A stretch of 64,000 nucleotides of DNA from an uncultured Nitrososphaerota archaeon. Lineage in GTDB: Archaea; Thermoproteota; Nitrososphaeria; Nitrososphaerales; CADDZS01. The translations under genes were made by a program, and so were the position numbers. A model generated the notes under the pieces. It was given only the letters and a program-made list of their open reading frames with translations. It was not told where the DNA came from and made no database searches. The first letter of the stretch is position 1; every line of letters starts with the position of its first letter. Below, piece by piece: positions 15,256 to 32,374 of the stretch. The stretch is from the NCBI GenBank assembly GCA_963799845.1, contig CAWCYI010000004.1:1312001-1376000 (forward strand), given 5' to 3'.

Positions 15256-16272
15256 ATGGACACTCTTAGAGTTGGACTGGTCGGCTTTGGAAGATTCGGA
15301 AAAATTCATGCAAGCGCGATCGATAAATTAATGGGTGTAAAAGTCGCCAGCATTTGCGTCGGAAGCGAAGAGAGCGCGACCGAAGCTAAAAAACAGCTGG
15401 ACGTTCCGGTTTATTCTAACTACGACAGTTTTTTGTCCCAAGGCGGTTTCGATATTATTGACATCGTATCGCCCAACTATCTTCATGCGAGTCAAGCGAT
15501 AAGCGCGATGGAAAAGGGAAAGGACGTAATTCTGGAAAAGCCGATTGCGATCAACATTGAAGACGCCCTAAGAATGTCCGAAGTTCAAAAAAAGACATCC
15601 ACCAAAGTTCAGGTTGTATTTGAGTACAGATATGCCCCGTTCTGGAAGTCATTCAAATCCGCGCTCAATGAAGATCTTGTCACCAATCCGACTTTTGCCA
15701 AGATTGAATCATGGCGAAGTCCATTTCGCACAGGTTCTAGAGGATGGCGGTACGATGGAGCAAGAGTTGGACACCAGCTTCTGGAGGAAGCGATACACTA
15801 CTTCGATCTCGCGGTATGGTATTTCGGAATGCCCCAGAAGGTCTCAGGCTTTACCGATTCTCCTTCGACTTGGAAGGAGGGCAAGTTTTCTACCGCCGTA
15901 ATTACTTTGGAATATGCAAGCGGCCTCAAAGTTTTGATCGAGGACACTTTGAATGGAGTTGCTGGACAGAACGTGGTGTCGGCGAGCGGGCAGGGAGCGA
16001 TGATCGGAATGATGTATTCCGGAGTAGAAAGCCCGGAAGAGACGGCCTGGATCAGGATAAGAGAAAAGGATGGGGGCTACAGGGCTGAGATGCTGAAAAC
16101 AATCGATGAAGTTGACGGCATTGCTTTACTCCTCGAGGATTTTGTGTCGAAACTGAGGAGGCGAGAAGAGCCCTCCGTGTCATTATCAGACGGTTTTAAC
16201 GCACTGTCCCTTGATCTGTCGTCAATTTCGGCGATCCAATCAGGCGTGCCTGAAATACCGAAGTCTGTCTAG
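15256..16272 (+). CDS. Gfo/Idh/MocA family NAD(P)-dependent oxidoreductase
   Basis: GFGRFG, SPNYLH, EKP, EEAIHYFD. Confidence 0.9.
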   Translation: MDTLRVGLVGFGRFGKIHASAIDKLMGVKVASICVGSEESATEAKKQLDVPVYSNYDSFLSQGGFDIIDIVSPNYLHASQAISAMEKGKDVILEKPIAINIEDALRMSEVQKKTSTKVQVVFEYRYAPFWKSFKSALNEDLVTNPTFAKIESWRSPFRTGSRGWRYDGARVGHQLLEEAIHYFDLAVWYFGMPQKVSGFTDSPSTWKEGKFSTAVITLEYASGLKVLIEDTLNGVAGQNVVSASGQGAMIGMMYSGVESPEETAWIRIREKDGGYRAEMLKTIDEVDGIALLLEDFVSKLRRREEPSVSLSDGFNALSLDLSSISAIQSGVPEIPKSV

Positions 16273-17302
16273 GATTTGTCCCAGTCAATTACAACAGCCA
16301 TGTACTCTTCTTTGTTGTTTAACAAGCCATCGTAAGCTCGTTTCATTTCCTCCGGAGCCACTACATGACTTACTAGCTCCTTGACTTTCAGCTTTCGTCG
16401 CTTAACGAGATCGAGAACGTGTGTTACGTCCCGGATATACGAATGGGGTGAATTATCGCCCGGCGGCGAGATCTGGTCTCGCTCAAGCGCTCCCCTTATG
16501 GTGAGCCACCTGAGATGTATTTGTCTGAAAAGCTGCGTGACGTCGGCGTTGTACGACGCGAAGGGTGTCCCGAGCAAGATCACCTGTCCCATCGGTCGGA
16601 CCAGTCCCACATTTGACATGATAAGCTGACTCACCCCGGTTGCATCAACGAGTGTATCAACTCCTTTTCCATCGTTGAATTCGGATGCTATGTCCTTGAG
16701 ATTGGTTTGGGAAGGGTCGTAAATCCCGACGCAATATCCAATGCCCCTCGCAATTGATCTCCTGAAATTTATGGGATCGAAAGCTACCACGTCTCCGCCG
16801 GCAAGGCTGAAGAGTGGGATGCGATCTGTCCAATTATTCCCAGACCGGTTAGAGCAATTTTGTCTCCGAGTTCGATTTTACTCAATCTAATGCTTCCACT
16901 GAGCACTATTGCTGCGAAACGGACCAGAGATACCTCGGGCAAAAGCAGATCTTCAGAAATGTTCGCATAGTGAGAGTAGCCGCTGTAGAGCTTGTCGTAA
17001 GTCGAGTGGTGGGCATGATGAAAGACTAGATCGCCAGGCTTGAGATCGACTTCCGAACCGGTTGCGATGACTTCGCCTAGTCCGGCATAACCCGGGACGT
17101 GTGGATAATTGCACCACGAATTTGGCTCGTACACTTTGGGGTTTGTGCCTGTGTATATTGAAAGCTCGGTACCGGCACTGATGGCCGTATACCTATTTTT
17201 AACGATGAATTCCGAGCTCCCAACATCAAAGTCGATAGAGTACTTTTCCACTTCAAGATCAAGCGGGCCCTTAATTACGAGGCGACGACCTTCCAAATTC
17301 AT
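16269..17302 (-). CDS. MDR (zinc-ADH-like) dehydrogenase, split by a 1-nt deletion near 16815
   Basis: ISAGTE, PGYAGLG, GLGIIG, DATG; frames join at IAS-(Q)-LFSLAGGDVVAFDP. Confidence 0.8.
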
Positions 17303-17384
17303 TGTGAACCTGGTTGGATATTGACTATCCCTAATTTATGTAATAGGAATCAACCCTTATCGCTGTTGGATTGGGTAAGAGAAT

Positions 17385-17758
17385 GTGTTGAATTACTCTA
17401 ATACAGAGAAAGAGCTCCTTGCTTCCAAGGATATCTGTCATCTTTCAGCACTGAGCGCAAACGGATGGCCGCACACAGTTCCTACTAGTTATATCTTGAT
17501 TGAAGGTGTGTTCTACATTCCTTCTGATCCTGAATCAAAGAAAGTGAAAACATTCGAAGGAATCCTAAATCGTCAATAACTATCGATGACGAGGTTTCCG
17601 AAGGCGGAATAACACTTGAAAGCGAGGCGAATATCCTCGCGGAGGGAGAAGCTACAGTCTTGAGAGACCAAATGAAAATCCTCAAGGGATGGACGAATAC
17701 TGTTTCAACAATAATAATCAAGCTGGATCCGCTTCGTAAGGCTAGTTGGTCTCTTTGA
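17385..17758 (+). CDS. Pyridoxamine 5'-phosphate oxidase-like (PPOX class) protein, frameshift in A-run near 17548
   Basis: GWPHTVP..SKKVK; adding one A gives NIRRNPKSSITIDD...KASWSL*. Confidence 0.7.
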
Positions 17759-19641
17759 CATTTGAAATAGCCAAAAATGGAATTCCCAAATGCGAAATCG
17801 CAATTCGGGAAAACAGCGAACTCCCGGAACGCTTTGCAGCTTCGGAACTTCAAAAATACTTGCAGCGGATTACAGGCGGACAATTTCCAGTTCGAGAAGC
17901 AAAAGAAAAGACAAAATCTACGTCAAATCGAAAGAAGTTACCAGTGATCATGGTTGGAGGCACACCAGCTTCTCGATCCAGTAAGTCCAGTAAGCAGAGA
18001 GAGGACGACAGCTTTTCAATCACTAGAACCAGAGCGAGTTTGGCAATTTCAGGCAATAACCCCCGGGCAACTCTTTTCGGGGTCTACTGGCTTATTCGGC
18101 AGCTGGGCGTCTCATTTCTTGCACCGGAATTCGATTATTACAGCCGTTTGGGCGGGAGTGAATTTGTCACTCTAAATCGTGACCTCAAAGTCTCTGAAAC
18201 ATGCTTCGGGACTCATAGACCCACTTTCGCTTGGCGACCGAAAGACATCGGAGAGGGGGCGAGCCACACAAAATCGAACATTTTACCATTGATAGATTGG
18301 ATGGCAAAAATGGGACACAACATACTGCGGTGCCCATCGCATGGCGAGGGAACCCATAGCAATCCTCACAGGACGAGCTGGGATATGTGGCGAGACTTCG
18401 TAACTCCTGAGTTGAAGAAAAGAGGAATCCTGATCCAGGTAGGCCAGCACGGGTATCAGAACTATTTGCCCACAGAGGAATACTTTCACGACCATCCGGA
18501 ATGGTTCGGCGAACTCAACGGGAAACGCGTTCCGATGAGCGAGTGCGTATTCTGCACTTCGAATTCTGATGTTTTGCAAGAATTCAAGAAGAATGTGATA
18601 AGCTACATTAAAGCGCGTCCGGAAATCAATATTTTTGATCTGTGGCCCCCAGACTCTGTTCCTTGGTGTGATTGCTCTAACTGCGTTGCATTGGGGAGCG
18701 AGTCCGAAAGACACGCTATAGTCGTTGAAACGATCAGGAGTGCCCTGAAAAGAGAGTGACCAGATGTCAAGTTAGGAATCCTCGCTTATGTCCACTATAC
18801 CGAGTTTCCCGAAAGGACTCCGATTTCATCGGAAGTTCGATTGGATTTTTGCCCGATTTATCGCGATTACAAATACAAGCTCAACGATGTCGTAAGCGAA
18901 TTTAACAGATCGGAATGCTGGGATAAGCTCCTGCGATGGAAGAACGGCTGGGCAGGAGAAATTGTGATCTACGAGTACTACATGAAATACCGATTTCGGA
19001 GTTTTCCGATAGTAATGCCGAGGCTTATTGCAGACGAACACTCGACATACGAAAAACTTGGAATTCGCGGAGTGAGCAGCTACTCCGAACCTGACACTTG
19101 GCTCGCCTACGAGATTTCGCATTGGATGCTCGCGATTTGCGGTTGGAACGGTGCGGTGGATGTGGATAAGGAGGTGCTTCGCTGGGCTTCGCTGCGCGTC
19201 GGCGAAAATCTCTCCGGACGACTTGATGAGGCTCTAAAATTGATGGAGGGAAATCTGCGTGGCCTTTATTCCGGACATTTTGGGTTTCATCCCCTCTGCG
19301 CAGTGGGAAAACTCGCGGTTGCTAAAGACGAGATGCGTGAAAGGGTAAATGCTCTCAAAAATGCCTTGGGAATTCTCGACGAAATTGTGAAAAGCGCAAC
19401 CGCTCTGGGATCAAAGGCTTGGGTTGAACACCTGAGACGAGCTCTCTACTATGCGATATGTGATTTTGAAGTGCAAATTGCTTGGGATCAGAACGATTCC
19501 AGACAGATTGCGCTTGAAAATTACCAAAAGTCGCTTGCCGGCCCGCAGGAAGATTTTGATGGAGTGATTCACTACGGCGAGGCGGGTCGCAGGGGGTTGA
19601 GCATCCATTACGATTCTCTAGAGCTGAAACCTCACTGGTAA
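17746..19641 (+). CDS. DUF4838-type putative carbohydrate-active protein with GH67-like N-terminal domain; one in-frame TGA at 18757-18759
   Basis: AASELQKYLQRITG, RATLFGVY, HPEWF, FCTSN, WCDCSNC; reading through TGA gives PDVKLGILAY..., in frame with ORF 18841-19641. Confidence 0.7.
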
Positions 19642-19712
19642 TAGCGCTCAATCAATGTTTTTAGCGAGACCATAGCTGAAGCTGATCGCAAGGTTTTCGG
19701 GGTAAAGTCAAT

Positions 19713-21155
19713 TTGATGAAAGCAATTATCGGCGAAGAGTTTGTGGAAACGGAAAAACGGCTTCAGGTGATGGAGCCAGCAACTGGAAATGTCCTGGATG
19801 AAATACCGAGCCTGAGTATCGAGCAGGTTAGATACGCGATCGATGTCGCATACGATTCTCTCCCGAAACTACAGAGTCTCTCTATCGCTCAAAGAGGTTC
19901 TCTTCTCCGAAAAGTTGCGGAACTCATCAGGAGCGATCCGGAACCCCTTGCAACTCTCATGTCACGAGAAATTGGCAGGCCGTTGAAGAGTTCAAGAGGG
20001 GAAATTCAGAGAACCGCGCAGATTTTCGATCTTGCCTCAACGCAAGCTCGCGAAGTTTTCGCGGGGAGCTTCATACCGCTCGAAGCTTACGACTTTCCAC
20101 CGGGAAATGAAAAGAGAATCGCGATCCTCACGAGAGAACCAATGGGGGTAGTCGCCTCCATCACGCCGTTCAATTTTCCATCTTCGAGCATTGCTCACAA
20201 AGTTGCACCAGCTCTTGCTGTTGGAAACACGGTTGTTCACAAGCCGAGTGTATTTGCTCCGCTTGTTCAAATCAAGATTGGTGAAATTATTCTAAAGGCT
20301 GGTTTTCCAGCCGGTTCATTAAACATAGTGACCGGCGACTCGCGAATGATCGGAAACGAGTTCGTTGAAAACCCAAAGATTTCCCTGATCACGTTTACCG
20401 GCTCGGAAAAGGTGGGCCTCGATCTCGCTAGCAGAGCGACTCTGAGAGGCAAGAGGGCAATAATGGAGCTCGGGGGAAGCGATGCGCAGATAGTCCTGGA
20501 AGATGCGAATTTGGAGAAAGCAGCCGACGCAGCGATCCTGGGCAGGTTCGACTATTCCGGTCAATTCTGCAATTCCACAAAACGGCTTCTTGTCAGAAAG
20601 GAGATCGCGCAAAAATTCACTGAAATGGTGCGCGAACGCCTGATGAAAACCAAGGTTGGAGATCCGATGTCTCTTGACACAACGGTCGGACCACTCATAT
20701 CTAGCGATGCGGTAGCTTCGATGAAAAACTTTGTTGATGATGCCCAGAGAAACGGTGGGCATGTCATATATCAGGGAACGACACCGCAGGGCGGATACTA
20801 CTTTCCTCCAACTCTTATGACGGTTGAGGGTAACAGTGCGAAGGTACTCAGCGAGGAAGTGTTCGGCCCCATCTTTCCCGTGATCGAAATCGGGAGCGAC
20901 GACGAAGCAATCCAGATCGCTAACTCGACTCCGTACGGATTGGATGCCTCAATATTCACCAAAGATTTCCCCCGAGCATACCGGATTGCTGGGAAGCTCA
21001 AGGTAGGAGCCGTGTTGATCAACGACACGACAAGGCTTCGCTGGGACAATCTTCCATTCGGAGGCCCCAAGAAGAGCGGCATTGGGCGGGAGAGCGTGAC
21101 GGACTCGATGATGGAGATGACGGAACCCAAACTGATCGCGTACAATCTTGGATAG
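19713..21155 (+). CDS. NAD(P)-dependent aldehyde dehydrogenase
   Basis: ITPFNFP, FTGS, MELGGSD, GQFCNS catalytic Cys, EEVFGP, PFGGPKKSG. Confidence 0.93.
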   Translation: MMKAIIGEEFVETEKRLQVMEPATGNVLDEIPSLSIEQVRYAIDVAYDSLPKLQSLSIAQRGSLLRKVAELIRSDPEPLATLMSREIGRPLKSSRGEIQRTAQIFDLASTQAREVFAGSFIPLEAYDFPPGNEKRIAILTREPMGVVASITPFNFPSSSIAHKVAPALAVGNTVVHKPSVFAPLVQIKIGEIILKAGFPAGSLNIVTGDSRMIGNEFVENPKISLITFTGSEKVGLDLASRATLRGKRAIMELGGSDAQIVLEDANLEKAADAAILGRFDYSGQFCNSTKRLLVRKEIAQKFTEMVRERLMKTKVGDPMSLDTTVGPLISSDAVASMKNFVDDAQRNGGHVIYQGTTPQGGYYFPPTLMTVEGNSAKVLSEEVFGPIFPVIEIGSDDEAIQIANSTPYGLDASIFTKDFPRAYRIAGKLKVGAVLINDTTRLRWDNLPFGGPKKSGIGRESVTDSMMEMTEPKLIAYNLG

Positions 21156-21165: not shown

Positions 21166-22035
21166 TTGGTTCACAGGATAGTCCCGGTAATCACTCCATT
21201 TAGGGCAAATAGAGTTGATATTGAGAAGCTCAAGCACCACGCTCGCGCACTCTTGGATGATGGGATGGATTTCTTGTTCATCGCCGGAACGACTGGCCTT
21301 GGACCCTCTTTGACCTCGGATGAAAAACTGCAGATGGTTGACGAGCTTCAAGAATTCTCATCAAAGTTGATTCTACAGGCAAGTTCGCTGGATCTTGCGG
21401 AGAGCGTGAAGCTAGCGGAGCATGCAAAGCGTTTGCATCTTCACGCGATCGCCTCCTACCCGCCGTACTTCTATCCAAGAATGCAGGATGATTGGGTTGT
21501 AAAGTACTTCCTTACGCTCTCCAAGATTTACCCGTTGCTCGCATACAATTATCCGCTCGCGACCGGGTACGAAATCGCGCCCGGAATTATCAAGAGGGTT
21601 ATTCAGGGCGGGGGCAACGTGATTGGTGTCAAAGATACTCTTCCAGAGCTTGCGCACATGCTCTCGTTCAAGTACCAGCTCGGAAATGATTTCCTCGTGT
21701 ACTCCGGTCCGGATACCGTCGTCACGTCGGCGGTAAGATCCGGATTGGACGGTTCAGTTGCGGGCAGCGCCAATTATGTCCCCGAGCTTCTCATAAAAGC
21801 CACCGACGTTGATTCGCCTTTGTCCGATGCTCTGAAGGCGCAAAAAACCATTACATCTCTCGCCGGCCTATCGAGGAAGTATGGCCAGTGGTCTGCAAAC
21901 TATAACCTCGTCAAGATAATCCGGGGATACGATGTTGGAGTCCCGCGAGAGCCGATCTATGCTCTTGGAAACGATGTGGAAGAAAAACTCGCGGCGGAGG
22001 CTCGCGCGGCGTATCCACTAATGAAATCGAAGTAG
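21166..22035 (+). CDS. Archaeal KD(P)G-type 2-keto-3-deoxy sugar acid aldolase (DHDPS/NAL superfamily)
   Basis: GTTGLGPSL, ASYPPYFYPR, YNYPLATG, GVKDT, VYSGPD, GLDGSVAGSANY resemble Sulfolobus/Thermoproteus KDG aldolase. Confidence 0.85.
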   Translation: MVHRIVPVITPFRANRVDIEKLKHHARALLDDGMDFLFIAGTTGLGPSLTSDEKLQMVDELQEFSSKLILQASSLDLAESVKLAEHAKRLHLHAIASYPPYFYPRMQDDWVVKYFLTLSKIYPLLAYNYPLATGYEIAPGIIKRVIQGGGNVIGVKDTLPELAHMLSFKYQLGNDFLVYSGPDTVVTSAVRSGLDGSVAGSANYVPELLIKATDVDSPLSDALKAQKTITSLAGLSRKYGQWSANYNLVKIIRGYDVGVPREPIYALGNDVEEKLAAEARAAYPLMKSK

Positions 22036-23134
22036 CTTCGAATCGGACGATTCCGGAATCGGTTCAACGGGCGCGATTCCCAGGCCCGGTCCGTCTACCT
22101 GTATTGACTGCTTGTCCAATTTCCCCTTGAATTCGAAATACTTTGCCGGGATTTCGTTGGGCGGGCTTTCGATTATTGCCGATCGGTCAAACGACGAAGC
22201 GACCTGCGCTCCGGCAACCAGACCGACCCATCCGTTGTGGGGCCGATTATGAAGAGCTACTCTTGAGCCATGAGACATGACTGCCTCGACAATTTCGCTT
22301 AGAGTCTGTTATGCCGCCGCACTTCGCCACGTCAGGCTGATAAAAAGTGAGAGAGTCAGTCTCGAGCAGTCTGCGATATTCGTGGATGCTGAAAAAGTTC
22401 TCACCGGCTGCCACAGGTCCAATTCGATTCAATTTTCGCAGCGACTCGAAATCATCGGGAGGCCAGACGGGCTCTTCTATCCACTTTAATTCAAATGGTC
22501 CGACCCGTCGCATAAATTCCTCTGCGGCGGAGTAACTAAATCCACAGTTCAGATCAACCATCAGTTCAAAATTTTTTCCAAAAGACTGTCTCAGAATTCT
22601 TACTCCGTCAAGTGTATCTTCTGCCGACTGATGAATTTTGATTGATTTGTATCCCTGCTCAATCAGATTTCCAACAGCGTCCCTGAGCTTTTTATTGTCC
22701 GAATATCTCGACAGGGAAACATATCGAGCTAATTTAGGCGGTGAGGTTGACTTTCCTCCCAACAACCTGAACAGCGACGAATAATGTTTTTTCCCTCGAA
22801 TATCCCAGAGAGCGATGTCAATTCCGGACATCGCGCCCGTCGTTATGCCATAGCCTCCGGTGAAACTCATCCTGCGCATCGTTTTCCAAAGTTTTTTGAT
22901 CCCGGCTTCGTTCTCTCCAGTGATTCCCTCGGCAAATCTCTGAATCATTGCTATGTACGGTTCCCTCGTATTGCCTGCCGCAGGAAGCACTTCGCCCCAG
23001 CCAACTACCCCACTCGCAGTCAGCCTCACAAACAACTGGTTGCTCCATTCGGCAATCCAGAGCTGCGGCGGTACAGTCTCAGAAAGCGGAATTGAACCCC
23101 TCCTGATCTGGATTTCTTCAATCATCGTGGGCAC
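22018..23134 (-). CDS. Mandelate racemase/enolase-superfamily sugar-acid dehydratase, frameshift near 22303
   Basis: GWGE, SGIDIALWDIRGK, MVDLN, WIEEP, AAGEN, QPDVAKCGGIT; second frame continues to GPGLGI. Confidence 0.85.
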
Positions 23135-23221: not shown

Positions 23222-23506
23222 ATGATGACCAAAGCGCTGATTCACGCTCACCCTGATTTTGTTGCAGTTGCAACTGACGATATAGCAAAAGGTGAAGAGA
23301 TCGTTGCTGTTTATATGGATGACAACAAGCAAACTTCTGTCCGAAGTAAGGAGGACATCGCTCTGGGACACAAGATTGCTCTAAGAAATATTGGAAAAGG
23401 CGAGAAGGTTATCGAGTACGGAGATGTCATCGGTGCTGCGATGAAGGACATCGCAACCGGGGAGCACGTGCACGTTCACAACTTGAAGTCGCTGAGATGG
23501 CAGTAG
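23222..23506 (+). CDS. suyA: SAF-domain small subunit of sulfolactate sulfo-lyase (SuyA-like)
   Basis: DFVAVA, IALGHKIAL, VIEYG..IG, GEHVHVHNLKSLRW; overlaps the start of suyB. Confidence 0.72.
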   Translation: MMTKALIHAHPDFVAVATDDIAKGEEIVAVYMDDNKQTSVRSKEDIALGHKIALRNIGKGEKVIEYGDVIGAAMKDIATGEHVHVHNLKSLRWQ

Positions 23507-24669
23507 GTGCAGAGCAATTGACAACCTTCATGGGATTTGAAAGAGAAAACGGCAGGGTCGGAACCAGAAATCACGTCCTGATCATTCCTCTTGATGACCT
23601 GTCCAACTCGTCGGCGGTCGCGGTCGAGAAGGAGATTTGGGGAACTCGGGCGATCCCCCATCCTTACGGTCGACTGCAGTTTGGAGCTGATCTCGATCTG
23701 ATGTTCAAAACGCTCTCCGGATTTGGGAAGAATCCAAACGTCGCGAGCGCAATCGTCATCGGGATTGAACCGAACTGGACGCAGAAGATCGCGGACGACA
23801 TCGCGAAGACTGGAAAAAACGTCGAAGCTCTTTCCATCGAGGAGAACGGGGATCTCAAGACAATTGAAAGGGCTTCGAGGTTCGCAAAGAAGATGGTAGT
23901 CGATGCCTCTGAGAAACAACGGAAAGAATTTGATGTGTCAAACCTCGTGGTCAGCACAAAATGCGGAGAGTCTGACACAACATCTGGTTTAGCATCAAAC
24001 CCGACCGTCGGTGTTCTTTATGACCGACTCGTCGATGAAGGTGCAACCCTCTTGATCGGAGAGACTTCAGAACTAACCGGCGCTGAACAGTATTTCGCCC
24101 AAAAGATGGTGACCCCCGAGCTCAAGCGAAAGTTCCTCAAAATGTTTGATGACTATACCAAGGAGTTGACGAGCAAGGGGGCTGATCTGTTCGGCTCGCA
24201 GCCAACGCAGGGCAACATCAAAGGAGGACTGAGTACCATCGAAGAAAAGGCACTAGGAAACATCCAGAAAGCCGGAAAGAGCCCGATGGTGGATGTCCTG
24301 GAGTACGCGGAAGAACCCACGAAAAAGGGGCTGAGCTTCATGAACTCTTCCTCAGCGGCTGCGGAATGCGTCACGCTGTTTGCTGCGGCCGGAGCAGTGG
24401 TGCACGTTTTTCCCACCGGGCAGGGTAACGTTATAGGAAATCCCATCGAGCCGGTCATCAAAATCTCCGCGAATCCGAAAACAGTCAGGACGATGTCAGA
24501 ACACATAGATCTCGACGTGTCCGGCTTGTTGCGACACGAGATCAATCTGAAGGAAGCTGGAGATCGCCTGTACAAACTTCTGATCAAGACTGCCTCCGGA
24601 AGAATGTGCGCGAACGAGGTTTTAGGACACTTTGAATTCGCTCCGACGAAACTGTACATTTCAGCGTAA
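23497..24669 (+). CDS. suyB: UxaA-family large subunit, SuyB-like (2R)-sulfolactate sulfo-lyase
   Basis: RENGRVG.RNHVLI.P.DD.SN, IPH.YGRLQFG.DLDL, STKCGESDTT, SSSAAAECVTL, FPTGQGNV.GNPI.PVIKIS.NP.T.RTMSEHID, C-terminal TKLYISA. Confidence 0.78.
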   Translation: MAVGAEQLTTFMGFERENGRVGTRNHVLIIPLDDLSNSSAVAVEKEIWGTRAIPHPYGRLQFGADLDLMFKTLSGFGKNPNVASAIVIGIEPNWTQKIADDIAKTGKNVEALSIEENGDLKTIERASRFAKKMVVDASEKQRKEFDVSNLVVSTKCGESDTTSGLASNPTVGVLYDRLVDEGATLLIGETSELTGAEQYFAQKMVTPELKRKFLKMFDDYTKELTSKGADLFGSQPTQGNIKGGLSTIEEKALGNIQKAGKSPMVDVLEYAEEPTKKGLSFMNSSSAAAECVTLFAAAGAVVHVFPTGQGNVIGNPIEPVIKISANPKTVRTMSEHIDLDVSGLLRHEINLKEAGDRLYKLLIKTASGRMCANEVLGHFEFAPTKLYISA

Positions 24670-24732: not shown

Positions 24733-25563
24733 TTAGGTTGAAGCTTCAACAAGTTTCTCTGGAGTGGCTGACAAAAGATCCTTCGTATACTGCTCCTTGG
24801 GATTTCCGAGGACATTGTCTTTGCTTCCATATTCCACAATCCTTCCTTTTTGCATGATCGCGACATCATCGCAGATATCAGCAGCGATAGATAGATCATG
24901 AGTGATCAGAAGGAATGACGTATTGAACTCCGTTTTCAGTCTCTGAAGAAGTTCGAGAATGGAGTTTCGATGAATGGAGTCAATCATCGTTGTCGGTTCG
25001 TCGGCCACCGCATAAACCGGATTTGTAATAAATGCCCTCGCGATCATAATCCTTTGTCTTTCCCCACCACTAAGTTCCTGCACTCTTTTGTCCAGAAAAG
25101 TCATGTCCAGTCCGATAACCTCCATCATCCGCGCTATTGGTTCCCGGAGTTCCTTTTGCTTCCAATTGAGCAGGAATCTCAATGGCCTTTCGAGCACTTC
25201 CCGAACCGACATGTACGGATCAAGCGAACTGTAAGGATCCTGATGGATGTACTGAGCCTTTACCCAGAGTTGTTTTCGATCTTTGATCTTTCCGACGTCG
25301 ATCCCGTCAACAAGGACACGACCCTTGCTCGCCGGCGTTAGCGCGACAGAGATTCTTGCCGCAGTTGTCTTGCCTGAACCACTTTGACCGACAAGTCCAA
25401 GTATCTTCCCCTTTCCGATGCTAAAAGAAATATCATCTACCGCGGTTACGATATTCTTGTTTCTGTCCCTGAAGTACTTGCTGACCGATTGGAATTCAAC
25501 GATTGTTGGTGAGCTCAAAAATTCACTCCCCTCCATAGAGAAAACAAGCAACCTTACGCCCAT
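24733..25563 (-). CDS. Opp/Dpp-type ABC transporter ATP-binding subunit (OppF-like)
   Basis: GQSGSGKT, LSGGERQR, ADEPT, ITHDL. Confidence 0.9.
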   Translation of the reverse strand: MGVRLLVFSMEGSEFLSSPTIVEFQSVSKYFRDRNKNIVTAVDDISFSIGKGKILGLVGQSGSGKTTAARISVALTPASKGRVLVDGIDVGKIKDRKQLWVKAQYIHQDPYSSLDPYMSVREVLERPLRFLLNWKQKELREPIARMMEVIGLDMTFLDKRVQELSGGERQRIMIARAFITNPVYAVADEPTTMIDSIHRNSILELLQRLKTEFNTSFLLITHDLSIAADICDDVAIMQKGRIVEYGSKDNVLGNPKEQYTKDLLSATPEKLVEAST

Positions 25564-26494
25564 CAGGAGTTACGATAGTCTCTGGAAATTTCTCGGAACA
25601 TATCTTCATGGCGTATGGACAAAACACAACATACGGACAAGACTCACTTCCAAGACTGGAAATCGATGGATCGCTTCTGTTAACCGCTTTCTCTTTCTTT
25701 CCTCCTATTCGAATCGAGCTTATCAATAATTTCGTGTATGGGTGAAGCGGATTCGCAATAACTTCTTTGGTCTTGCCCTCCTCGATTTGGCGCCCCCTGA
25801 ACATTACTACGAGCCGATCTGTCATTAAGGCGTGGACAGAGATGTCATGCGAGATGAATATGATGCTCCGGATCTTTGAATCCTTCCTCAATGACTTGAT
25901 TACTTTGAGAATAGAGGATTGTGTTATAGTATCCAAAGCGGTCGTCGGTTCGTCTGCGACTAAAATCGTCGGATTTGTGGAGATAGCCATCGCAATGGCA
26001 ACACGTTCCTTCATGCCGCCACTTAGTTGGTGGGGATAAGCATCAATTACCGAAGGATCAAGTTCCACCAGCTTTAGCGTCTCCCGAACTAATTCCTTCG
26101 CTTCATTTTTGTTAGCAGTTACTTTTTTGCTCTTCAAAAGATCAACAAAACTGGTGCCCACAGTAGTTACAGGGTCTAGAGTGTTCATTGAAGCTTGGAA
26201 AATCATTGATGCCTTACTCCACCTGTAAGTCCTCAGCTCAGAATCGTTCATTTCAAGCACATTCTTTTGATCTACCATAATCCGACCAGTCACAACGTTG
26301 GGTTTGGTTATCATACCCAGAATCGCCCAACCGACTGTACTTTTGCCGGCTCCACTTTCGCCCAAAAGTCCAACCGATTCACCAATTTGGAGTTCCAGTC
26401 CAAAGCTCTTGACAGCTTGAATGTTGTGATTTCTTGTTACATACTCAACGTCTAGGTTTTCGATGTCAAGACTAACGTTGGTGCTGTCTCCCAA
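25523..26494 (-). CDS. Opp/Dpp-type ABC transporter ATP-binding subunit (OppD-like)
   Basis: GESGAGKS, YPHQLSGGM, ADEPTTALD, HPYT, C-terminal Cys cluster. Confidence 0.9.
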   Translation of the reverse strand: MGDSTNVSLDIENLDVEYVTRNHNIQAVKSFGLELQIGESVGLLGESGAGKSTVGWAILGMITKPNVVTGRIMVDQKNVLEMNDSELRTYRWSKASMIFQASMNTLDPVTTVGTSFVDLLKSKKVTANKNEAKELVRETLKLVELDPSVIDAYPHQLSGGMKERVAIAMAISTNPTILVADEPTTALDTITQSSILKVIKSLRKDSKIRSIIFISHDISVHALMTDRLVVMFRGRQIEEGKTKEVIANPLHPYTKLLISSIRIGGKKEKAVNRSDPSISSLGSESCPYVVFCPYAMKICSEKFPETIVTPDGRKVACFLYGGE

Positions 26495-26557: not shown

Positions 26558-27991
26558 TCACGTCACTATTTCTGATATTGCTTTTCTTTTGGCAAATGAA
26601 GCGGGGAAGATAGCTAGGCCATTAATGATGGCAAGAACTACCGCAACAATTTGAAACCCAATGATAAATTCCTGTTTAGCAGCAAATGTTTGCACCTGAG
26701 TCGTATTGCCTAACACTAGAAGGCTGAGTGTTTTAAACGGAATAGCTAATGTCATCAGGAGGATGGCGAAACCAAAACTCAGGGTATCTCCAATATTTGA
26801 AAGCGTAATTCTAAATGCCGACGCTATTCCTCTGCGATTTGCCGGGACCGAACCCATAACTGAGCTAATATTTGGTGGGATCCATAATCCTTCCCCTAGA
26901 CCAAAGGTTACTAGTGCAATAAGCAAGATTGGGATGGTCTTGATTGAGTTAATAAATACAAACATGAAAAAACCTACGCTGCAAATAGCGAGACCAATAA
27001 TCGCGAATTTTCTCGATCCGAATCTGTCTGATAGTCTTCCGCTCAAAGGCGCAACAACCAGCACGGTAAGATCAAGAGCTAGAAATTGTAATCCTGTCTC
27101 AAGAGGCGTATAACCCATTACAACTTGCAAATAGAAAGAGGCCATAATCACTATTCCAGATGAAGCGATTGCGTTGATCAGTTGAGCAATCGATCCTCCA
27201 GCAAATTGCTTAATCTTGAAAAGACTGGGATCAAGCAAAGGAGCAATTTTTCTATCTTTTAGTTCAAGTAGAACAAATTGTATCAGGAGTCCTGATCCAA
27301 CGGCCAGCAATGTGAACCCCCATAAGTAACCAGAAAGACCGTAACTGAGTAATGTAATTGAAAGTAAAACCAAACTTAGTCCAGCGGTAAACAAGACGAA
27401 TCCAATCCAATCCATTTCCCTCTTTTCGATCTTGCCGGAAATATCCTTCAGTCTCTTGTAAGCCCATACTGTACCGAATATCCCTATCGGGATGTTGATG
27501 TAGAATAATGCTCTCCAACTTGTGATGGCAAGTATTACTCCAGATAACGTTAATCCGGCCATAGATCCGATCCTATAAGCAATACTGTTTATACCAAGGA
27601 ATTTCCCTAACTCATTTCTTGGTACGGCGTCAGTGATTATTGCAGCACTGTTAGAAAGAATCATGGAAGCGCCGATGCCCTGTACAATCCGCGCGGCTAT
27701 TAGCTCAAGACCTGTAAATGAAAAGGTTGCAAGCGCAGATCCAATGGTGAACACAAGAAAGCCGTAATTGTATATCCTCACCCTTCCAACCACATCAGCG
27801 GTCCTTCCAATGAACAGTAAACCAATAGTACTTGCGAGAAGATATGCCTGGCTGACCCAAATAATCTGATCTACATTGGCGCCCAGCTGTTTCGCAATAC
27901 TTGGAAGACCGACAAGAACGATTCTCGCATCTACGCCGGCCATGAGGGCGCCCACTGTGGTTACACTTAGGGCGACCCATTTGTATTGCAA
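26558..27991 (-). CDS. MFS transporter (DHA2/EmrB-like, 14 TM)
   Basis: GRTADVVGR, ARIVQGIG, WRALFYINIPIG, GRLSDRFG. Confidence 0.9.
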   Translation of the reverse strand: MQYKWVALSVTTVGALMAGVDARIVLVGLPSIAKQLGANVDQIIWVSQAYLLASTIGLLFIGRTADVVGRVRIYNYGFLVFTIGSALATFSFTGLELIAARIVQGIGASMILSNSAAIITDAVPRNELGKFLGINSIAYRIGSMAGLTLSGVILAITSWRALFYINIPIGIFGTVWAYKRLKDISGKIEKREMDWIGFVLFTAGLSLVLLSITLLSYGLSGYLWGFTLLAVGSGLLIQFVLLELKDRKIAPLLDPSLFKIKQFAGGSIAQLINAIASSGIVIMASFYLQVVMGYTPLETGLQFLALDLTVLVVAPLSGRLSDRFGSRKFAIIGLAICSVGFFMFVFINSIKTIPILLIALVTFGLGEGLWIPPNISSVMGSVPANRRGIASAFRITLSNIGDTLSFGFAILLMTLAIPFKTLSLLVLGNTTQVQTFAAKQEFIIGFQIVAVVLAIINGLAIFPASFAKRKAISEIVT

Positions 27992-28532: not shown

Positions 28533-29561
28533 TTGCAGGCTCCAAGATCGTCAATTTCTCGCTTTCTAGATAGATACACTCGTGGTTATCTTATACGAAG
28601 ACTTGGCAATCTTGCAATAATTTTCTTCATAACAGTAACGATCAACTTTGTCCTGCCAAGATTGGAGCCGGGGAATTTCGCACAGACTTACATCGCGCAG
28701 CTGGTGGCGGACGCCCATGATGTCAGCCCAGCCACTCAACACATTCTAGTCCAGCACATGACGAGTGTTTTCGGTCTGAATGAACCCGAATACGTACAAT
28801 ATGTGAAATATCTAGAGGCGCTGTTTTCATTTCCTCCCAATTTTGGCTTTTCGTTCGAGTTTTATCCTACATCTGCTTGGCAAATAATTTCAATCGCATT
28901 ACCCTGGACTCTCCTCCTGGTTGGCTCTTCCCAGATCATAGCTTGGGTTATAGGAATCTTCTTGGGAGTGAGTATGGCTCTGCGGAAGGGAAGTATATTT
29001 GACAGATTGATGCAACCTCTAAACATCTCGTTGCTGACCGTTCCTGCGTTCTGGCTCGCAACGGTCTTCATCGTGGTCTTTGCAATAGATCTAAGGGTGT
29101 TGCCTGCCGCTACGGCTTATACAATTACCCCGACTGTTCCAAGCGTTCTCGTGCACATGATCCTACCTCTTTCAGTGCTCGTGATCACAACGCTTCCCTC
29201 CCACGTTATCGTGATACGTAGCGCGGCATTGGAGGTTCTCCAAAGCGACTTTGTGACCGCAATGAGGGCACAGGGGCTGGGAGGAGGACTGCTCCTCAAA
29301 CGCGTAATGAAGAACTCGATGCTCCCTTCTCTCACCGCATTCTTCCTCACTTTAGGCAATGTGATTGGGGGGGTCTTTGTAGTGGAGTATACATTTTCCT
29401 ACCCTGGACTCGGTAGTGTATTTGCAGACGCTATCTTTGCGAGAGACTATCCTGTTTTGCAAGCGGGCCTCTTCATGACAGTGGTGGTTGTGTTGCTTGC
29501 CAATCTCGCTGCCGACTTGATGTATCCCATCATCGATCCGAGAGTATCGTACACCAGGTGA
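28533..29561 (+). CDS. Opp/Dpp-type ABC permease (OppB-like)
   Basis: NFVLPRL.PG, LPWTLLL, DFVTAMRAQGL, FSYPGLG, RDYPVLQ, IIDPRV. Confidence 0.9.
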   Translation: MQAPRSSISRFLDRYTRGYLIRRLGNLAIIFFITVTINFVLPRLEPGNFAQTYIAQLVADAHDVSPATQHILVQHMTSVFGLNEPEYVQYVKYLEALFSFPPNFGFSFEFYPTSAWQIISIALPWTLLLVGSSQIIAWVIGIFLGVSMALRKGSIFDRLMQPLNISLLTVPAFWLATVFIVVFAIDLRVLPAATAYTITPTVPSVLVHMILPLSVLVITTLPSHVIVIRSAALEVLQSDFVTAMRAQGLGGGLLLKRVMKNSMLPSLTAFFLTLGNVIGGVFVVEYTFSYPGLGSVFADAIFARDYPVLQAGLFMTVVVVLLANLAADLMYPIIDPRVSYTR

Positions 29562-30403
29562 TTCGCCAAGAGTTGAACCTTCGAGATTCAGGTTTCATAA
29601 GGGTAGTAAGGGAACGACTTTACGTGAAAGTGGGTCTAATCATTATCTCATTCTTCGTTGGGCTTGCGATCCTGAGTTTCGTTTACTTATTGTACAATCC
29701 TTTAGCAACAACCGGACCAAATTTCGCTCCCCCCTCGTTTGCTCATCCCTTTGGAACCACAGTAATCGGACAGGACGTTTTCAGCCAGTGGATTTATGGG
29801 AGCAGGGCTACCCTGTTCGTAGGCTTTTTGACCGCAGTGCTCACAACAATCATCGGGACGACGACAGGAGTTGCATCCGGTTTTATCCGGAACCTCGATG
29901 AACCCTTGATGCGAATTGCCGATGTGGTACTAACACTGCCAACCCTGCCCCTACTCATTGTGATCTCTTCCTTCTTCAAACCGAGCCTCGTAATCGTCGC
30001 GGTGCTCATCTCGTTATTGGCGTGGCCCGCGATGGCGCGGGTGCTGCGATCAAGTGTCTTCTCGCTGCGCGAACTATCATATGTAGAGGTCGCTTTGTTA
30101 AGCGGGGTTCCTAGGGTGCGGATAATGTTTTCCGACCTTCTGCGACATCTCATCCCTCTAATAATTGCATACTCGCTGTTCGCGGTAATTGGGGCAATCC
30201 TAGCAGAAGCCGCTCTTGATTTTATAGGTGTGGGTCCGATCAACTCTTACAGTTGGGGAGCGATGCTCGCGCTGGCGCAGGATAGTTCAGCAGAGCTTTA
30301 CAATGCTTGGTGGTGGGTAGTTGTGCCAGGGTTAAGCATAGCTATTCTTGGAACAGGGTTTGCCTTCATAGCGTACGGTCTGGAAGATTATTACAAACGT
30401 TAG
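29558..30403 (+). CDS. Opp/Dpp-type ABC permease (OppC-like)
   Basis: PPSFAHPFGT..GQD, AEAALDFIG, SWGAML, WWWVVVPG. Confidence 0.9.
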   Translation: MIRQELNLRDSGFIRVVRERLYVKVGLIIISFFVGLAILSFVYLLYNPLATTGPNFAPPSFAHPFGTTVIGQDVFSQWIYGSRATLFVGFLTAVLTTIIGTTTGVASGFIRNLDEPLMRIADVVLTLPTLPLLIVISSFFKPSLVIVAVLISLLAWPAMARVLRSSVFSLRELSYVEVALLSGVPRVRIMFSDLLRHLIPLIIAYSLFAVIGAILAEAALDFIGVGPINSYSWGAMLALAQDSSAELYNAWWWVVVPGLSIAILGTGFAFIAYGLEDYYKR

Positions 30404-30496
30404 TTGTCAAAGGGCAGAAGCCCCAAAAGGGTCGAGCTCGGCACCTGTCACTTTCATAAAAAGTTTATATTAGGAAATTCGTCTTGTGGCTTTAGT

Positions 30497-32374
30497 TTGA
30501 ACGCGCTCAATACTAAATCTATACTTATCTTAATGATCTTTGTTGGCTCCGCCTTCGCAGTAGCGTACCATCCCACAGTTGTACATGCAGTGACTCCGGG
30601 GACGACACTGAATCTTGGCCTAAATCGATTTGCTACAATTCCATCTCTAAATCCATACTCGCCAGTCTATGTCAATCCACTCGATTCCGAGATGTACCTG
30701 CGTTGCATCCAAGTTGATTACGCGCCAGCTTCACATTTTACAGACACTCTTTGTAACTCGTGGAGTTCGAACGTTAACTACACCAGTTGGACAATGAACC
30801 TGATTCCCGGCCTCAAGTGGAGTGATGGTTCACCCTTGAATGCGACCGATCTCGCCTGGTCATTGCTTTATGGCAATGCTACTGGATATTTCGCGCCGTA
30901 CCTGACATCGGTAAAGACCGACAATGCGACTGCTGTCACCGTGACAGTGCCAATCTCTCAGCCGAACTGGCTCAATAACATGGAAAATATTTTCATCGTT
31001 CCATACGAAAACTTTGGCAAGACTCCCCTTTCGAGCATTGCTAACTACACTGCTTTCTCGAATATAGTCGCTGCAGGTCCGTACATTCTCCCTTCATACA
31101 CAGCTGGTACTAATCCGCTGATAATGATTCCCAACCAGTATTACTATCAGGGCAATAATCAATACTACAGCCAAGTGGCGGTACACATTTTCTCATCCTT
31201 GTCATCAATGGAATCCGCAATTCTTGCAGGTCAGATAAACATCATGTGGTACTCGGGCACGACACAATCCACAAGTGCATTCAACTCGAGCAAGAGCGTT
31301 TCGATCTTCGAATTTACTGCTACTGACGAATATCAGATACTAAATCTCAACTATCTTCAGGCCCCGCTCAACAACGTCTCTTTTAGAGAAGGGTTGGCTT
31401 ACGCTACTGATAGAAACGCACTTTCATTGACGGTAAATGGTCCAGGATACTCGCTAGTAAACTATGGTGGAGGACCAACGGTCCAACCGGGCGAGAACAC
31501 CTATCAGTACAATACTACTACGGCGGAGTCAGAGTTTGCCAAGGCCGGCCTCACTGAATCTGGTGGAAAATTAATGTATGCTAATGGAACTCAGGTCTCG
31601 CTGACTATACAGATTCCAACCGGAGAACCTGACTCTCAGAACATCGCTACCGTGATTTCACAACAATGGGACAAGGTGGGCATAAATGCGATGACGGAAG
31701 TTACCGACGCTACCACCCTCTACTCAGACTTTGGCACCGGAGCTTGGCAGATTGCGAGCTTGACGGAAGATGGGACAACTGGCACCCCGATTCGATACAC
31801 CGACCAGTTGCAGAGCTCTGGCCTCACGATAATAACACTCGCAGCAACTCCAGGGGCTGCGGCAACTGCAGATCAGTACATAACGCCCCAAATTGGTCAA
31901 TTGATAATCAACCAATCGTTGGTACCCACCGGTTCTGCGCAGTATAACGCAATACAGGCTCAGATTACCCCCTTCATCGCCCAACTAGTTCCGTCTATCC
32001 CATTCTACACAGAGGCGGACATAGTAGTATACACCACTGGCATAACCTTCGGATCTAATTCAACAAATGCAAACGATGCCACGGGGATCTACGACTATCA
32101 GACTAACGTGCAGCAACCATACAATGCGGGGACATTCTACTATGCCGCCCCGCTGGCAATCACTTCTAGCTCGACAAGCAGTTCTACGGCACAGCCAACT
32201 TCTACCGTAATACCTTCTCCTACAACAACAGCTAGTAGCACCAGCAGCAGTTCGTCCACCGCCATAACTAACTCCATTTACTTGGAGCTTGCCGTTGCCG
32301 CGACTGTAATAGCTGTGACAGGAATCCTAGCCTTCTCAAGAAGGTCCAGAGGCAGCTCCCCATCTCGAAGCTGA
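30497..32374 (+). CDS. Family 5 extracellular solute-binding protein (probably sugar-binding) with Ser/Thr linker and C-terminal anchor
   Basis: KWSDGSPLNATD, AAGPY, FREGLAYATDR; likely TTG start 30497, about 26 nt after TATA-like TTTATAT at 30465. Confidence 0.85.
   Translation: MNALNTKSILILMIFVGSAFAVAYHPTVVHAVTPGTTLNLGLNRFATIPSLNPYSPVYVNPLDSEMYLRCIQVDYAPASHFTDTLCNSWSSNVNYTSWTMNLIPGLKWSDGSPLNATDLAWSLLYGNATGYFAPYLTSVKTDNATAVTVTVPISQPNWLNNMENIFIVPYENFGKTPLSSIANYTAFSNIVAAGPYILPSYTAGTNPLIMIPNQYYYQGNNQYYSQVAVHIFSSLSSMESAILAGQINIMWYSGTTQSTSAFNSSKSVSIFEFTATDEYQILNLNYLQAPLNNVSFREGLAYATDRNALSLTVNGPGYSLVNYGGGPTVQPGENTYQYNTTTAESEFAKAGLTESGGKLMYANGTQVSLTIQIPTGEPDSQNIATVISQQWDKVGINAMTEVTDATTLYSDFGTGAWQIASLTEDGTTGTPIRYTDQLQSSGLTIITLAATPGAAATADQYITPQIGQLIINQSLVPTGSAQYNAIQAQITPFIAQLVPSIPFYTEADIVVYTTGITFGSNSTNANDATGIYDYQTNVQQPYNAGTFYYAAPLAITSSSTSSSTAQPTSTVIPSPTTTASSTSSSSSTAITNSIYLELAVAATVIAVTGILAFSRRSRGSSPSRS

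Follow-up and report, generated by a model that had tools for sequence, protein, structure and literature searches.

We analyzed a stretch of 64,000 nucleotides (referred to as the window here) from an uncultured Nitrososphaerota archaeon (contig CAWCYI010000004.1, positions 1,312,001 to 1,376,000 of the forward strand), in which the genes of a two-subunit lyase resembling the sulfolactate sulfo-lyase SuyAB lie among genes for sugar-acid breakdown. Genes were called from a list of open reading frames (ORFs) together with Pfam and NCBIfam scans, and their coordinates are collected in Table 1. A first-pass annotation, made from the sequence letters, had read positions 15256 to 32374 as a candidate sulfoglycolytic Entner-Doudoroff (ED) pathway coupled to desulfonation by SuyAB. 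Every gene that it named was found where it had been placed, but two of them, encoding a medium-chain dehydrogenase/reductase (MDR) and an enolase-superfamily dehydratase, are frameshifted, and it had missed a DUF4838 gene, a GH116 gene just past the interval, and a second sugar-acid module at 40568-47437. We observed which protein families are encoded at this locus, that the lyase has the clade membership and signature of SuyB, and that its association with sugar-acid genes recurs in archaea.

Family placement of the SuyAB-like lyase

The 3' end of the small-subunit gene overlaps the start of the large-subunit gene by 10 nucleotides. A small subunit with a SAF domain directly upstream of a GD_AH subunit of ∼390 amino acids is the heteromeric architecture described as unique to SuyAB among the four functions then known (PMC6336799), and it is present here. 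Of 80 related loci, 78 have, at the thresholds used, a homologous small ORF immediately preceding the large subunit; the exceptions are L080, which is truncated by the contig end, and L058, in which none was found. Split two-subunit forms also occur in other UxaA subfamilies, and the SuyA-like subunit is itself nondiscriminating, with 38 to 50% identity to SuyA and to other UxaA-family small subunits or N termini alike.

Homologues of the large subunit with 74 to 99% identity are abundant in the databases, where the automatic annotation of JGI names them sulfolactate sulfo-lyase subunit beta and NCBI names them UxaA-family hydrolase or galactarate dehydratase; the sole relative with a solved structure is GarD (135 bits). 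A genome scan with the large subunit yielded the 80 loci, 12 of them archaeal (Nitrososphaerota, Thermoplasmatota, and unclassified; 71 to 91% identity) and 68 bacterial (56 to 66%). A plasmid search gave 13 matches at 57.7 to 63.3% identity, after which identity fell to 41% or less among the 60 matches listed. In a quick tree of 89 rows, comprising the window protein, the 80 loci, two plasmid loci, UxaA and GarD of Escherichia coli, and four other UxaA-family proteins, the first three sets form a SuyB clade (SH-aLRT, 100; stem, 1.78) that leaves UxaA, GarD, and the four other proteins outside. The same clade received ultrafast bootstrap and SH-aLRT values of 100/100 and a stem of 1.41 in a careful tree of 46 rows. 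The anchors of these trees were identified by locus context and literature, not by experimentally purified SuyB sequences.

The identity of the window protein to the 70 bacterial clade members ranges from 56.3 to 65.7% (median, 61.6%), and that to UxaA, GarD, and the other UxaA-family proteins from 27 to 40% (27 to 29% for UxaA and GarD alone). Judging by identities of 57.6 to 63.9% to the SuyB anchors and of 64.5 to 72.1% among the anchors themselves, it is about as close to them as they are to one another. The bacterial clade has 130 alignment columns with an invariance of at least 97%, and the window protein retains 124 of them. At the positions where the dehydratases carry four cysteines it has L35, R59, I90, and C156, so that three of the four are absent. 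This pattern (L/I, R, I, C) is found in all 83 clade rows, while all four positions are Cys in UxaA, GarD, and the UxaA-family proteins of L085 and L086; the four cysteines have been described as conserved across the superfamily except in SuyAB (PMC6336799). The large subunit scores 172 bits against TIGR03248, far below the cut-off of 731. We rejected a sugar-acid dehydratase of the UxaA/GarD type on the basis of the low identity, the position outside the clade, and the missing four-Cys set. The first-pass annotation had proposed a SuyB-like lyase and named a phylogeny of SuyB versus UxaA/GarD as the way to decide; the protein fell in the SuyB clade. We thus regard the pair at 23222-24669 as a real-looking, putative (2R)-3-sulfolactate sulfo-lyase. 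The automatic SuyB label is defensible for the archaeal proteins, and the NCBI label of galactarate dehydratase on their relatives is probably wrong. A separate two-subunit UxaA-family branch is represented on a Variovorax plasmid (L087, positions 5720-7167), whose protein is 40% identical and also lacks three of the four cysteines; next to it are genes for a GntR regulator, a hydroxyacid dehydrogenase, an Ldh-family oxidoreductase, and a tripartite tricarboxylate transporter (TTT) binding protein, and the enzyme may represent a further lyase acting on an acid that resembles sulfolactate.

The recombinant SuyAB of Desulfovibrio sp. DF1 was reported to cleave sulfolactate, and proteobacteria employing SuyAB to have proteins more than 70% identical to it (PMC6278857). 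The genomic settings of the bacterial clade members are recognizable as loci for sulfonates, namely, for DHPS (2,3-dihydroxypropane-1-sulfonate), sulfolactate, sulfite export, or sulfosugars. On a plasmid of Cupriavidus pinatubonensis, hpsN, hpsO, a major facilitator superfamily (MFS) gene, and an alcohol dehydrogenase gene precede the small and large subunits, and Paracoccus versutus pTAV3 carries a GntR gene, the two subunits, a putative sulfate exporter, and a sulfite oxidase. The locus of Bacillus litorisediminis contains 2-Hacid_dh, Ldh_2, PF03601, and tripartite ATP-independent periplasmic (TRAP) transporter genes, an actinomycete locus TauE, a Desulfovibrio locus TctCBA with a sulfite-reductase-like protein, and a Gaiellales locus a homologue of the phosphosulfolactate synthase ComA. 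Over the 80 loci, 2-Hacid_dh is a companion in 27, Ldh_2 in 12, and a PF03601-like protein in 6. The loci of Athalassotoga and L017 combine transaldolase/isomerase-type sulfosugar genes with a homologue of the lactate racemase LarA. Such a homologue immediately follows SuyB in two bacterial sulfosugar-type clusters (L013:11143-12363 and L017:11164-12435), where it could replace SlcC/ComC as a one-enzyme racemase for sulfolactate.

Among the 80 loci, 9 to 10, drawn from five phyla, encode next to SuyAB both a fumarase-like pair (class I, two subunits) and an SdhA/SdhB-like pair of flavoprotein and iron-sulfur (FeS) protein (L003, L009, L016, L018, L019, L026, L031, L068, and L076, with L040 in part); the Gaiellales locus with ComA is of this type. 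We speculate that these pairs form a sulfonate analogue of the succinate-fumarate-malate sequence, from 3-sulfopropanoate via sulfoacrylate to sulfolactate. Just upstream of the cluster studied here, at 11835-15190, a QmoC/NarI-like membrane protein is encoded together with a flavoprotein and an FeS protein that resemble TfrA/TfrB. These two score 394 and 166 bits against the models of CoM/CoB fumarate reductase, both under the cut-off, and the flavoprotein shares only 26.5% identity with the SdhA found beside SuyAB in L003.

Sugar-acid genes adjoining SuyAB

Neighborhoods were compared by tblastn of the window proteins against the 80 loci and by Pfam scans of the neighbors, and the comparison shows SuyAB repeatedly associated with sugar-acid genes among related archaea. 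An orthologue of the cluster dehydratase (43 to 77% identity) lies within ∼3.5 kb of SuyAB in 7 of the 12 archaeal loci (L001, L004, and L007-L011) and is intact in each; counting the window, it adjoins SuyAB in 8 of 13. Any such match was found in only 1 of the 68 bacterial loci. In L002, the gene immediately preceding SuyAB also encodes an enolase-superfamily protein, but a different one, and the contig of L005 stops just past SuyB. The dehydratase gene is divergent and upstream in the window and in L001, the syntenic contig of a Nitrososphaerales metagenome-assembled genome that is the closest relative (large subunit, 91%), convergent and downstream in L004 and L007-L011, and on the same strand in L002 and L010. 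Orthologues of the aldehyde dehydrogenase (ALDH; 50 to 62%) are near SuyAB in 4 of the 12 archaeal loci (L002, L004, L005, and L010), those of the aldolase (46 to 72%) in 3 (L001, L004, and L010), and those of the Gfo/Idh/MocA (Gfo) protein in L001 (71%) and L002 (56%). Orthologues from the second module flank SuyAB elsewhere, namely, the short-chain dehydrogenase/reductase (SDR) in L002 (65%) and the amidohydrolase in L004 (36%).

Nearly full sets, with an SDR or MDR, a dehydratase, an ALDH, and a transporter, surround SuyAB in L010 and L002. In L010, from Thermoplasmatota, these comprise the aldolase, a 2-hydroxyacid dehydrogenase, a metallo-β-lactamase-fold hydrolase, an orthologue of the second-module dehydratase (65%), and the ALDH, together with the orthologue of the second-module SDR (53%), a GntR regulator, another dehydratase, and a sugar MFS transporter. 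L002 encodes, on one strand, Gfo, SDR, MDR, dehydratase, SuyAB, ALDH, a cyclase-family hydrolase, OppD/F, and Gfo, with the OppD/OppF orthologues (58 to 63%) 2.7 kb downstream of SuyB. In L001, an orthologue of the DapA-like protein (84%) directly follows SuyB. The MDR and DUF4838 genes of that contig are separated by genes for a macro-domain protein and an N6/N4 DNA methylase (L001:4198-5643), neither of which occurs at this place in the window.

Table 1. Genes of the cluster and its surroundings, by position in the window
Gene product	Positions	Strand	Remarks
Gfo/Idh/MocA oxidoreductase	15256-16272	+	338 amino acids; Pfam; candidate sugar dehydrogenase
MDR (zinc-type) dehydrogenase	16269-17302	-	Pfam ADH_N and ADH_zinc_N in two ORFs
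DUF4838/GH67N-like putative glycoside hydrolase	17746-19641	+	Pfam
ALDH, candidate sulfolactaldehyde dehydrogenase	19713-21155	+	Pfam Aldedh, 476 bits
DHDPS-family 2-keto-3-deoxy-acid aldolase	21166-22035	+	KD(P)G type
Enolase-superfamily (MR/MLE) acid-sugar dehydratase	22018-23134	-	Pfam MR_MLE_N/C; interrupted
SuyA-like small subunit	23222-23506	+	94 amino acids; Pfam SAF
SuyB-like large subunit	23497-24669	+	390 amino acids; Pfam GD_AH_second and GD_AH_C
OppF ATPase of Opp/Dpp-class ABC importer	24733-25563	-	Pfam ABC_tran, oligo_HPY
OppD ATPase	25523-26494	-	Pfam ABC_tran, oligo_HPY
MFS transporter, DHA2/EmrB-like	26558-27991	-	Pfam MFS_1
OppB permease	28533-29561	+	Pfam BPD_transp_1
OppC permease	29558-30403	+	Pfam BPD_transp_1
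Family-5 substrate-binding protein	30404-32374	+	656 amino acids; Pfam SBP_bac_5
GH116-family glycosidase	32508-34553	-	Pfam Glyco_hydr_116N and DUF608
DapA-like DHDPS-family protein	34685-35581	+	TIGR00674, 200.2 bits (cut-off, 206)
GH116 paralogue (second module)	40568-42616	-	Pfam
Gluconate/galactonate-dehydratase-like enolase-superfamily enzyme (second module)	42725-43870	+	Pfam, NCBIfam
SDR, glucose-1-dehydrogenase-like (second module)	44188-45003	-	Pfam, NCBIfam
ORF of 413 amino acids (second module)	45048-46289	+	
Amidohydrolase (second module)	46286-47437	-	Pfam

The enzymes beside SuyAB belong to families of sugar-acid metabolism at scores below the respective cut-offs. The best NCBIfam match of the aldolase is the archaeal 2-keto-3-deoxy-(6-phospho)gluconate [KD(P)G] aldolase (NF040954; 288 bits, cut-off of 390), and because of this sub-cut-off score we consider it a paralogue of that enzyme and assign no specificity. 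It scores 220 bits against the Sulfolobus KD(P)G aldolase (PDB 1w37) versus 60 bits against the 2-keto-3-deoxygluconate (KDG)-specific Picrophilus enzyme (4uxd). Its catalytic residues align with those of the Sulfolobus (Sso) enzyme, Lys156 with the Schiff-base lysine K155 and Tyr127 and Tyr129 with Y130 and Y132, as do Arg105 and Arg237 with R106 and R237, the residues that we take to bind the C6 phosphate there; the DapA-like protein lacks these two arginines. For the ALDH, the best NCBIfam match is lactaldehyde dehydrogenase (448 bits, cut-off of 650) and the best PDB match 8hap (475 bits), followed by lactaldehyde dehydrogenase and GAPN structures at ∼320 bits; its best named relatives are lactaldehyde dehydrogenase, GAPN, and SSADH. 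The cluster dehydratase matches galactonate dehydratase best (137 bits, below the cut-off), and that of the second module reaches 315 bits against a cut-off of 750. The Gfo protein has inositol dehydrogenases as its best NCBIfam and PDB matches. A GH188 sulfoquinovosidase, suggested for it by the first-pass annotation, was rejected: the match to the GH188 structure 8QC2 (∼390 amino acids, with the sulfonate-site residues R166, L170, and K172; PMC11465081) is half-length, spanning residues 2-186 (the Rossmann half) with 58.7 bits, and falls below the 69 bits of inositol dehydrogenases.

As the first-pass annotation had noted, no kinase is encoded in the cluster, with zero matches to kinase families in the Pfam scan of 15256-32374. 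Its MFS exporter is indeed an MFS protein of the DHA2/EmrB type (TIGR00711, 198.8 bits versus a cut-off of 230.2; at least 10 hydrophobic segments), for which the direction of transport was a family-level guess. The substrate-binding protein has hydrophobic segments at both termini. The two GH116 paralogues are 58% identical, and the one at 32508-34553 scores 86.9 bits against the solved GH116 β-glucosidases. The DUF4838 protein found no match in a PDB sequence search, and the profile of its family matches GH67 α-glucuronidase (62 bits) and GH20, GH115, and GH84 enzymes. GH67 and GH115 α-glucuronidases handle an anionic C6. The GH116 and DUF4838 proteins as glycosidases acting on sulfoglycans may be taken as leads only.

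Between the two sugar modules, an ORF at 38419-39264 (+) encodes only the C-terminal Transposase_20 domain of an IS110-family transposase and is preceded by an ORF of 204 amino acids without family match (37402-38016, +); the region 37402-39264 may be a broken insertion sequence. Rfam families and tRNAs were not found in the window, and a scan with bacterial-type promoter and terminator models gave the same result as shuffled controls.

The first-pass annotation's view of the host as a PolD-containing, Thaumarchaeota-like archaeon agrees with the gene content. The window encodes Cdc6 and PolD (including its small subunit DP1), and among the 120 Cdc6 homologues listed, every named one is from Nitrososphaerales, Nitrososphaerota, or Thaumarchaeota, with one labeled just "archaeon." A thermopsin-family acid protease (656-2182, +) and a malate synthase (49897-51507, +) fit an acidophilic heterotroph better than an ammonia oxidizer, and the window showed no amo genes. 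Thermopsin has been noted in non-ammonia-oxidizing Thaumarchaeota of acid soils, according to PMC10640624.

A candidate sulfosugar route and its alternatives

On balance we lean, if only slightly, toward a reading in which the SuyAB sulfo-lyase of this acidophile-like, non-ammonia-oxidizer-like member of the Nitrososphaerota takes the final step of a nonphosphorylative ED-like route for a 6-deoxy-6-sulfohexose, which we think is sulfoquinovose or sulfofucose; we infer all of the substrates and the order of the steps. The Opp-class ABC importer would take up a sulfosugar glycoside or oligosaccharide, from which the GH116 and/or the DUF4838 protein would free the sulfosugar. A sugar 1-dehydrogenase (candidates are the Gfo protein, the MDR, and the SDR at 44188) would oxidize it, and hydrolysis of the lactone would have no candidate in the window unless it is the amidohydrolase. 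The enolase-superfamily dehydratase would then form a 2-keto-3-deoxy-sulfo-aldonate, which the KD(P)G-type class I aldolase would split into pyruvate and sulfolactaldehyde (SLA); here the C6 sulfonate would sit where the C6 phosphate sits, in a cluster with no kinase to make the phosphate. Finally, the ALDH would turn SLA into sulfolactate, and SuyAB would split it into a second pyruvate and sulfite.

A pathway of this kind is known from Paracoccus wurundjeri, for which Stewart et al. (mBio 2025, PMC12421959) describe a tandem sulfofucolytic ED and sulfolactate sulfolyase pathway, with an enolase-superfamily dehydratase and then SuyAB characterized for sulfofucose. As far as described there, the shared logic runs from a dehydrogenase through a lactonase (with no PF08450 counterpart here), a dehydratase, an aldolase, and SLA oxidation to SuyAB. 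Both systems have SuyAB last, an ABC importer in the cluster, and a galactonate-dehydratase-like enolase-superfamily enzyme (PF13378/PF02746) in the SuyAB locus, its gene being frameshifted in the window; the likeness described here is at the level of family and logic. The other Paracoccus enzymes named in that account belong to PF13561, PF08450, and PF03328, and SlcC/ComC racemize S-sulfolactate. The archaeal locus differs in having a class I DHDPS-type aldolase (PF00701) rather than HpcH/HpaI (PF03328), Gfo/Idh/MocA and MDR dehydrogenases in the cluster rather than an SDR, neither a PF08450 lactonase nor ComC/SlcC, and an ALDH, the SLA dehydrogenase of Paracoccus not being identified in that account.

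The sulfo-ED pathway of Pseudomonas putida SQ1 likewise leads, without phosphorylation, from a 6-sulfo-aldose via 2-keto-3-deoxy-6-sulfo-aldonate to pyruvate and SLA, which an ALDH converts to sulfolactate. This strain reportedly excretes the sulfolactate, which SuyAB would mineralize here. Its families, given as PF13561 (SDR), PF08450 (lactonase), PF00920 (IlvD/Edd dehydratase), and PF03328 (HpcH/HpaI aldolase) in PMC12421959, are all absent from 15256-32374, and the nearest SDR is 20 kb away. Homology to the bacterial sulfo-ED pathway is not supported; the ALDH family alone is shared. Relative to SuyAB (EC 4.4.1.24) of Desulfovibrio sp. DF1, C. pinatubonensis, and Paracoccus pantotrophus, the lyase shares the SAF and GD_AH subunits, the Cys pattern, and the clade (58 to 64% identity to the bacterial anchors), but it sits on a separate archaeal branch and has sugar-acid neighbors instead of DHPS or sulfolactate dehydrogenases, C3-sulfonate transporters, and sulfite exporters.

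The nonphosphorylative (npED) or branched ED pathway operates in the archaea Sulfolobus, Thermoplasma, and Picrophilus. The cluster resembles it in having an MDR or SDR sugar dehydrogenase, an enolase-superfamily aldonate dehydratase, a DHDPS-type KD(P)G aldolase, and an ALDH, and it differs from it in its scores under the equivalog cut-offs for the aldolase and the second-module dehydratase, in having no glycerate or KDG kinase, and in the embedded SuyAB. Its best reading is an archaeal, nonorthologous version of the sulfo-ED or sulfofucolytic ED pathway with SuyAB, drawn from npED-type families.

The observations that follow weigh against this reading. The 64-kb window contains no PF08450-type lactonase, no sulfolactate racemase of the ComC/SlcC/LarA type, and no TauE, PF03601, sulfite exporter, or sulfite oxidase, and S-sulfolactate from the aldolase route needs racemization before SuyAB can act, according to PMC12421959. 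With these genes missing and two pathway genes frameshifted, the first-pass claim of complete sulfosugar mineralization in one locus went too far. In a plasmid search for Sfc-like bacterial clusters with the intact L001 dehydratase, no homologue exceeded 36% identity. The aldolase and ALDH would suit nonsulfonated sugars equally. Sugar-acid genes are absent near SuyAB in 3 of the 12 archaeal loci (L003, L006, and L012), genes for Sdh and fumarase stand beside it in L003 and L009, and the otherwise syntenic contig of L001 has neither an ALDH nor the Opp/MFS/GH116 block. No repeats bounding this block (24.7-34.6 kb) were found.

These genes would also be explained if SuyAB were a genuine enzyme for free C3 sulfonates from the environment (sulfolactate, or compounds derived from cysteate or DHPS) and its neighbors an ordinary route for nonsulfonated sugars, such as glucose or galactose, a deoxyhexose (fucose or rhamnose, leading to lactaldehyde), or pentoses, the two being adjacent as parts of a shared carbon-scavenging island. 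We judge this rather unlikely, though deserving of attention. The lactaldehyde dehydrogenase family of the ALDH, the KD(P)G type of the aldolase, the resemblance of the second module to gluconate/galactonate dehydratase and glucose-1-dehydrogenase, and the kinship of the GH116 enzymes with β-glucosidases all fit it, as do the archaeal loci with SuyAB and no sugar genes; most bacterial SuyAB loci, by their context and by the account in PMC6278857, serve C3 sulfonates. It accounts poorly for the adjacency of dehydratase and SuyAB in 7 of 12 archaeal loci, in several arrangements, versus 1 of 68 bacterial ones. Furthermore, genes for a C3-sulfonate transporter (TRAP or TTT) and for DHPS or sulfolactate dehydrogenases are missing from the neighborhood of SuyAB in the window, and L013 and L017, the nearest bacterial relatives in some trees, lie in sulfosugar-type clusters.

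The lyase itself raises a second set of objections. The archaeal sequences form a separate branch, supported at 100/95 in the careful tree of 46 rows; in this and in the quick 46-row tree alike, it is the sister group of the bacterial rows as a whole. The branch is nested among bacterial SuyB in the 89-row quick tree. The approximately unbiased (AU) test found the topology with the archaea outside better by 18.3 log-likelihood units (p-AU, 0.916), and we dropped the nested position, as this test and both 46-row trees favor or allow sister placement. Given this possible placement, we also gave up bracketing the function phylogenetically. In addition, all 13 archaeal rows carry D283N, a position with D in 68 of 70 bacterial rows, and no archaeal clade member has been assayed.

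The archaeal enzymes could have switched substrate, so that the lyase or dehydratase acts on a different 2-hydroxy acid, or on a sugar acid that the neighbors supply, with no sulfolactate involved. The well-supported branch fits this, as do further clade-wide changes at otherwise invariant positions (I74S/A and P306T), the absence of sulfite-handling genes from the window, and the location of other two-subunit UxaA-family proteins (L085 and L086) in fucose-type or KDG-type sugar-acid clusters. Nonetheless we find such a switch quite improbable: three of the four dehydratase cysteines are missing, every archaeal row keeps 116 of the 130 invariant and 34 of the 40 clade-specific invariant columns, the identity to the SuyB anchors matches that among the anchors, and the branch leading to the archaea (0.2 to 0.3) is short compared with the stem of the whole clade (1.4 to 1.8).

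The last objections to the sulfosugar reading concern interrupted genes, which we judged against the intact orthologues in L001. The MDR gene has a -1 frameshift, with one base missing near 16802-16814, so that the L001 orthologue matches in two frames by tblastn; the dehydratase gene has a +1 frameshift, with one extra base near 22302-22307, and likewise occupies two frames. The DUF4838 gene is in one reading frame apart from an in-frame TGA at 18757-18759, where the intact L001 ORF of 631 amino acids encodes Thr. A recoding of this codon was rejected, since TGA ends 16 of the 34 confident genes of the window, more than any other stop codon. Also split in two frames on the minus strand is the gene for DP1, with the OB part at 8631-9266, which matches DP1 structures, and the phosphoesterase part at 7654-8616; this suggests single-base sequence errors or else an essential gene that is unusually split, and it makes sequencing error plausible for the cluster as well.

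If the MDR, dehydratase, and DUF4838 genes were instead true pseudogenes, the cluster would be decaying and the pathway no longer complete in this organism. Three interruptions within 6 kb, one of them a nonsense codon rather than an indel, the position of both frameshifts outside long homopolymers (none of the three interruptions lies in one), the transposase fragment nearby, and a gene content unlike that of L001 would agree with decay. We think decay unlikely, because the presumably indispensable DP1 is frameshifted too, pointing to sequence error, and because the Cdc6 gene of the window lies on a 2.14-Mb contig of a kind of assembly in which, we infer, single-base indels are common; the dehydratase and SDR at 42725-45003 are moreover intact. 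Given the split DP1 and this contig, we keep both pseudogenes and single-base assembly errors as explanations for the interruptions.

Archaeal sulfosugars as possible substrates

Thermoacidophilic archaea make sulfosugars themselves. Sulfolobus N-glycans are described as carrying Glc-β1-4-sulfoquinovose-β1-3 (PMC8993221) and Thermoplasma glycans as carrying sulfofucose (PMC12421959), and relatives of the present lineage are reported to have acquired UDP-sulfoquinovose synthase (PMC10640624). It is tempting, though tentative and with the balance of probability against it, to see the locus as a laterally exchanged module of acidophilic Nitrososphaerota and Thermoplasmatota that mineralizes the sulfosugars of archaeal surface glycans by means of an importer, glycosidases, an npED-type sulfo-ED pathway, and SuyAB. 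The substrates would be β-linked sulfoquinovose, as in Sulfolobales-type N-glycans, and sulfofucose, as in Thermoplasma. The GH116 paralogues and/or the GH67/GH115-like DUF4838 protein would be new sulfoquinovosidases or sulfofucosidases recognizing the anionic C6, and npED-type enzymes recruited by nonorthologous replacement would run the sulfo-ED pathway.

Pathways of this kind have been described before, and automatic annotation already applies the SuyB label; our literature searches on sulfolactate, suyB, or sulfoquinovose in archaea, including Thermoplasmata and Thaumarchaeota, turned up no description of an archaeal SuyAB-linked sugar-acid cluster. All known sulfoquinovose degradation pathways are bacterial, with no characterized archaeal one, as far as a 2026 review describes them (PMC12890257), and yet, within the compass of these sources, archaea produce glycans bearing such sugars. 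The interest of the finding hinges on biochemical confirmation. If the sulfosugar reading is true, this would be the first archaeal sulfoglycolysis, with a concrete, cloneable enzyme set and a pathway rebuilt from nonorthologous enzyme families. Heterotrophic Thaumarchaeota and Thermoplasmata in acid settings could then release sulfite from organosulfur carbon, and, should surface glycans be the source, a sulfosugar cycle internal to the archaea would be closed in acid habitats.

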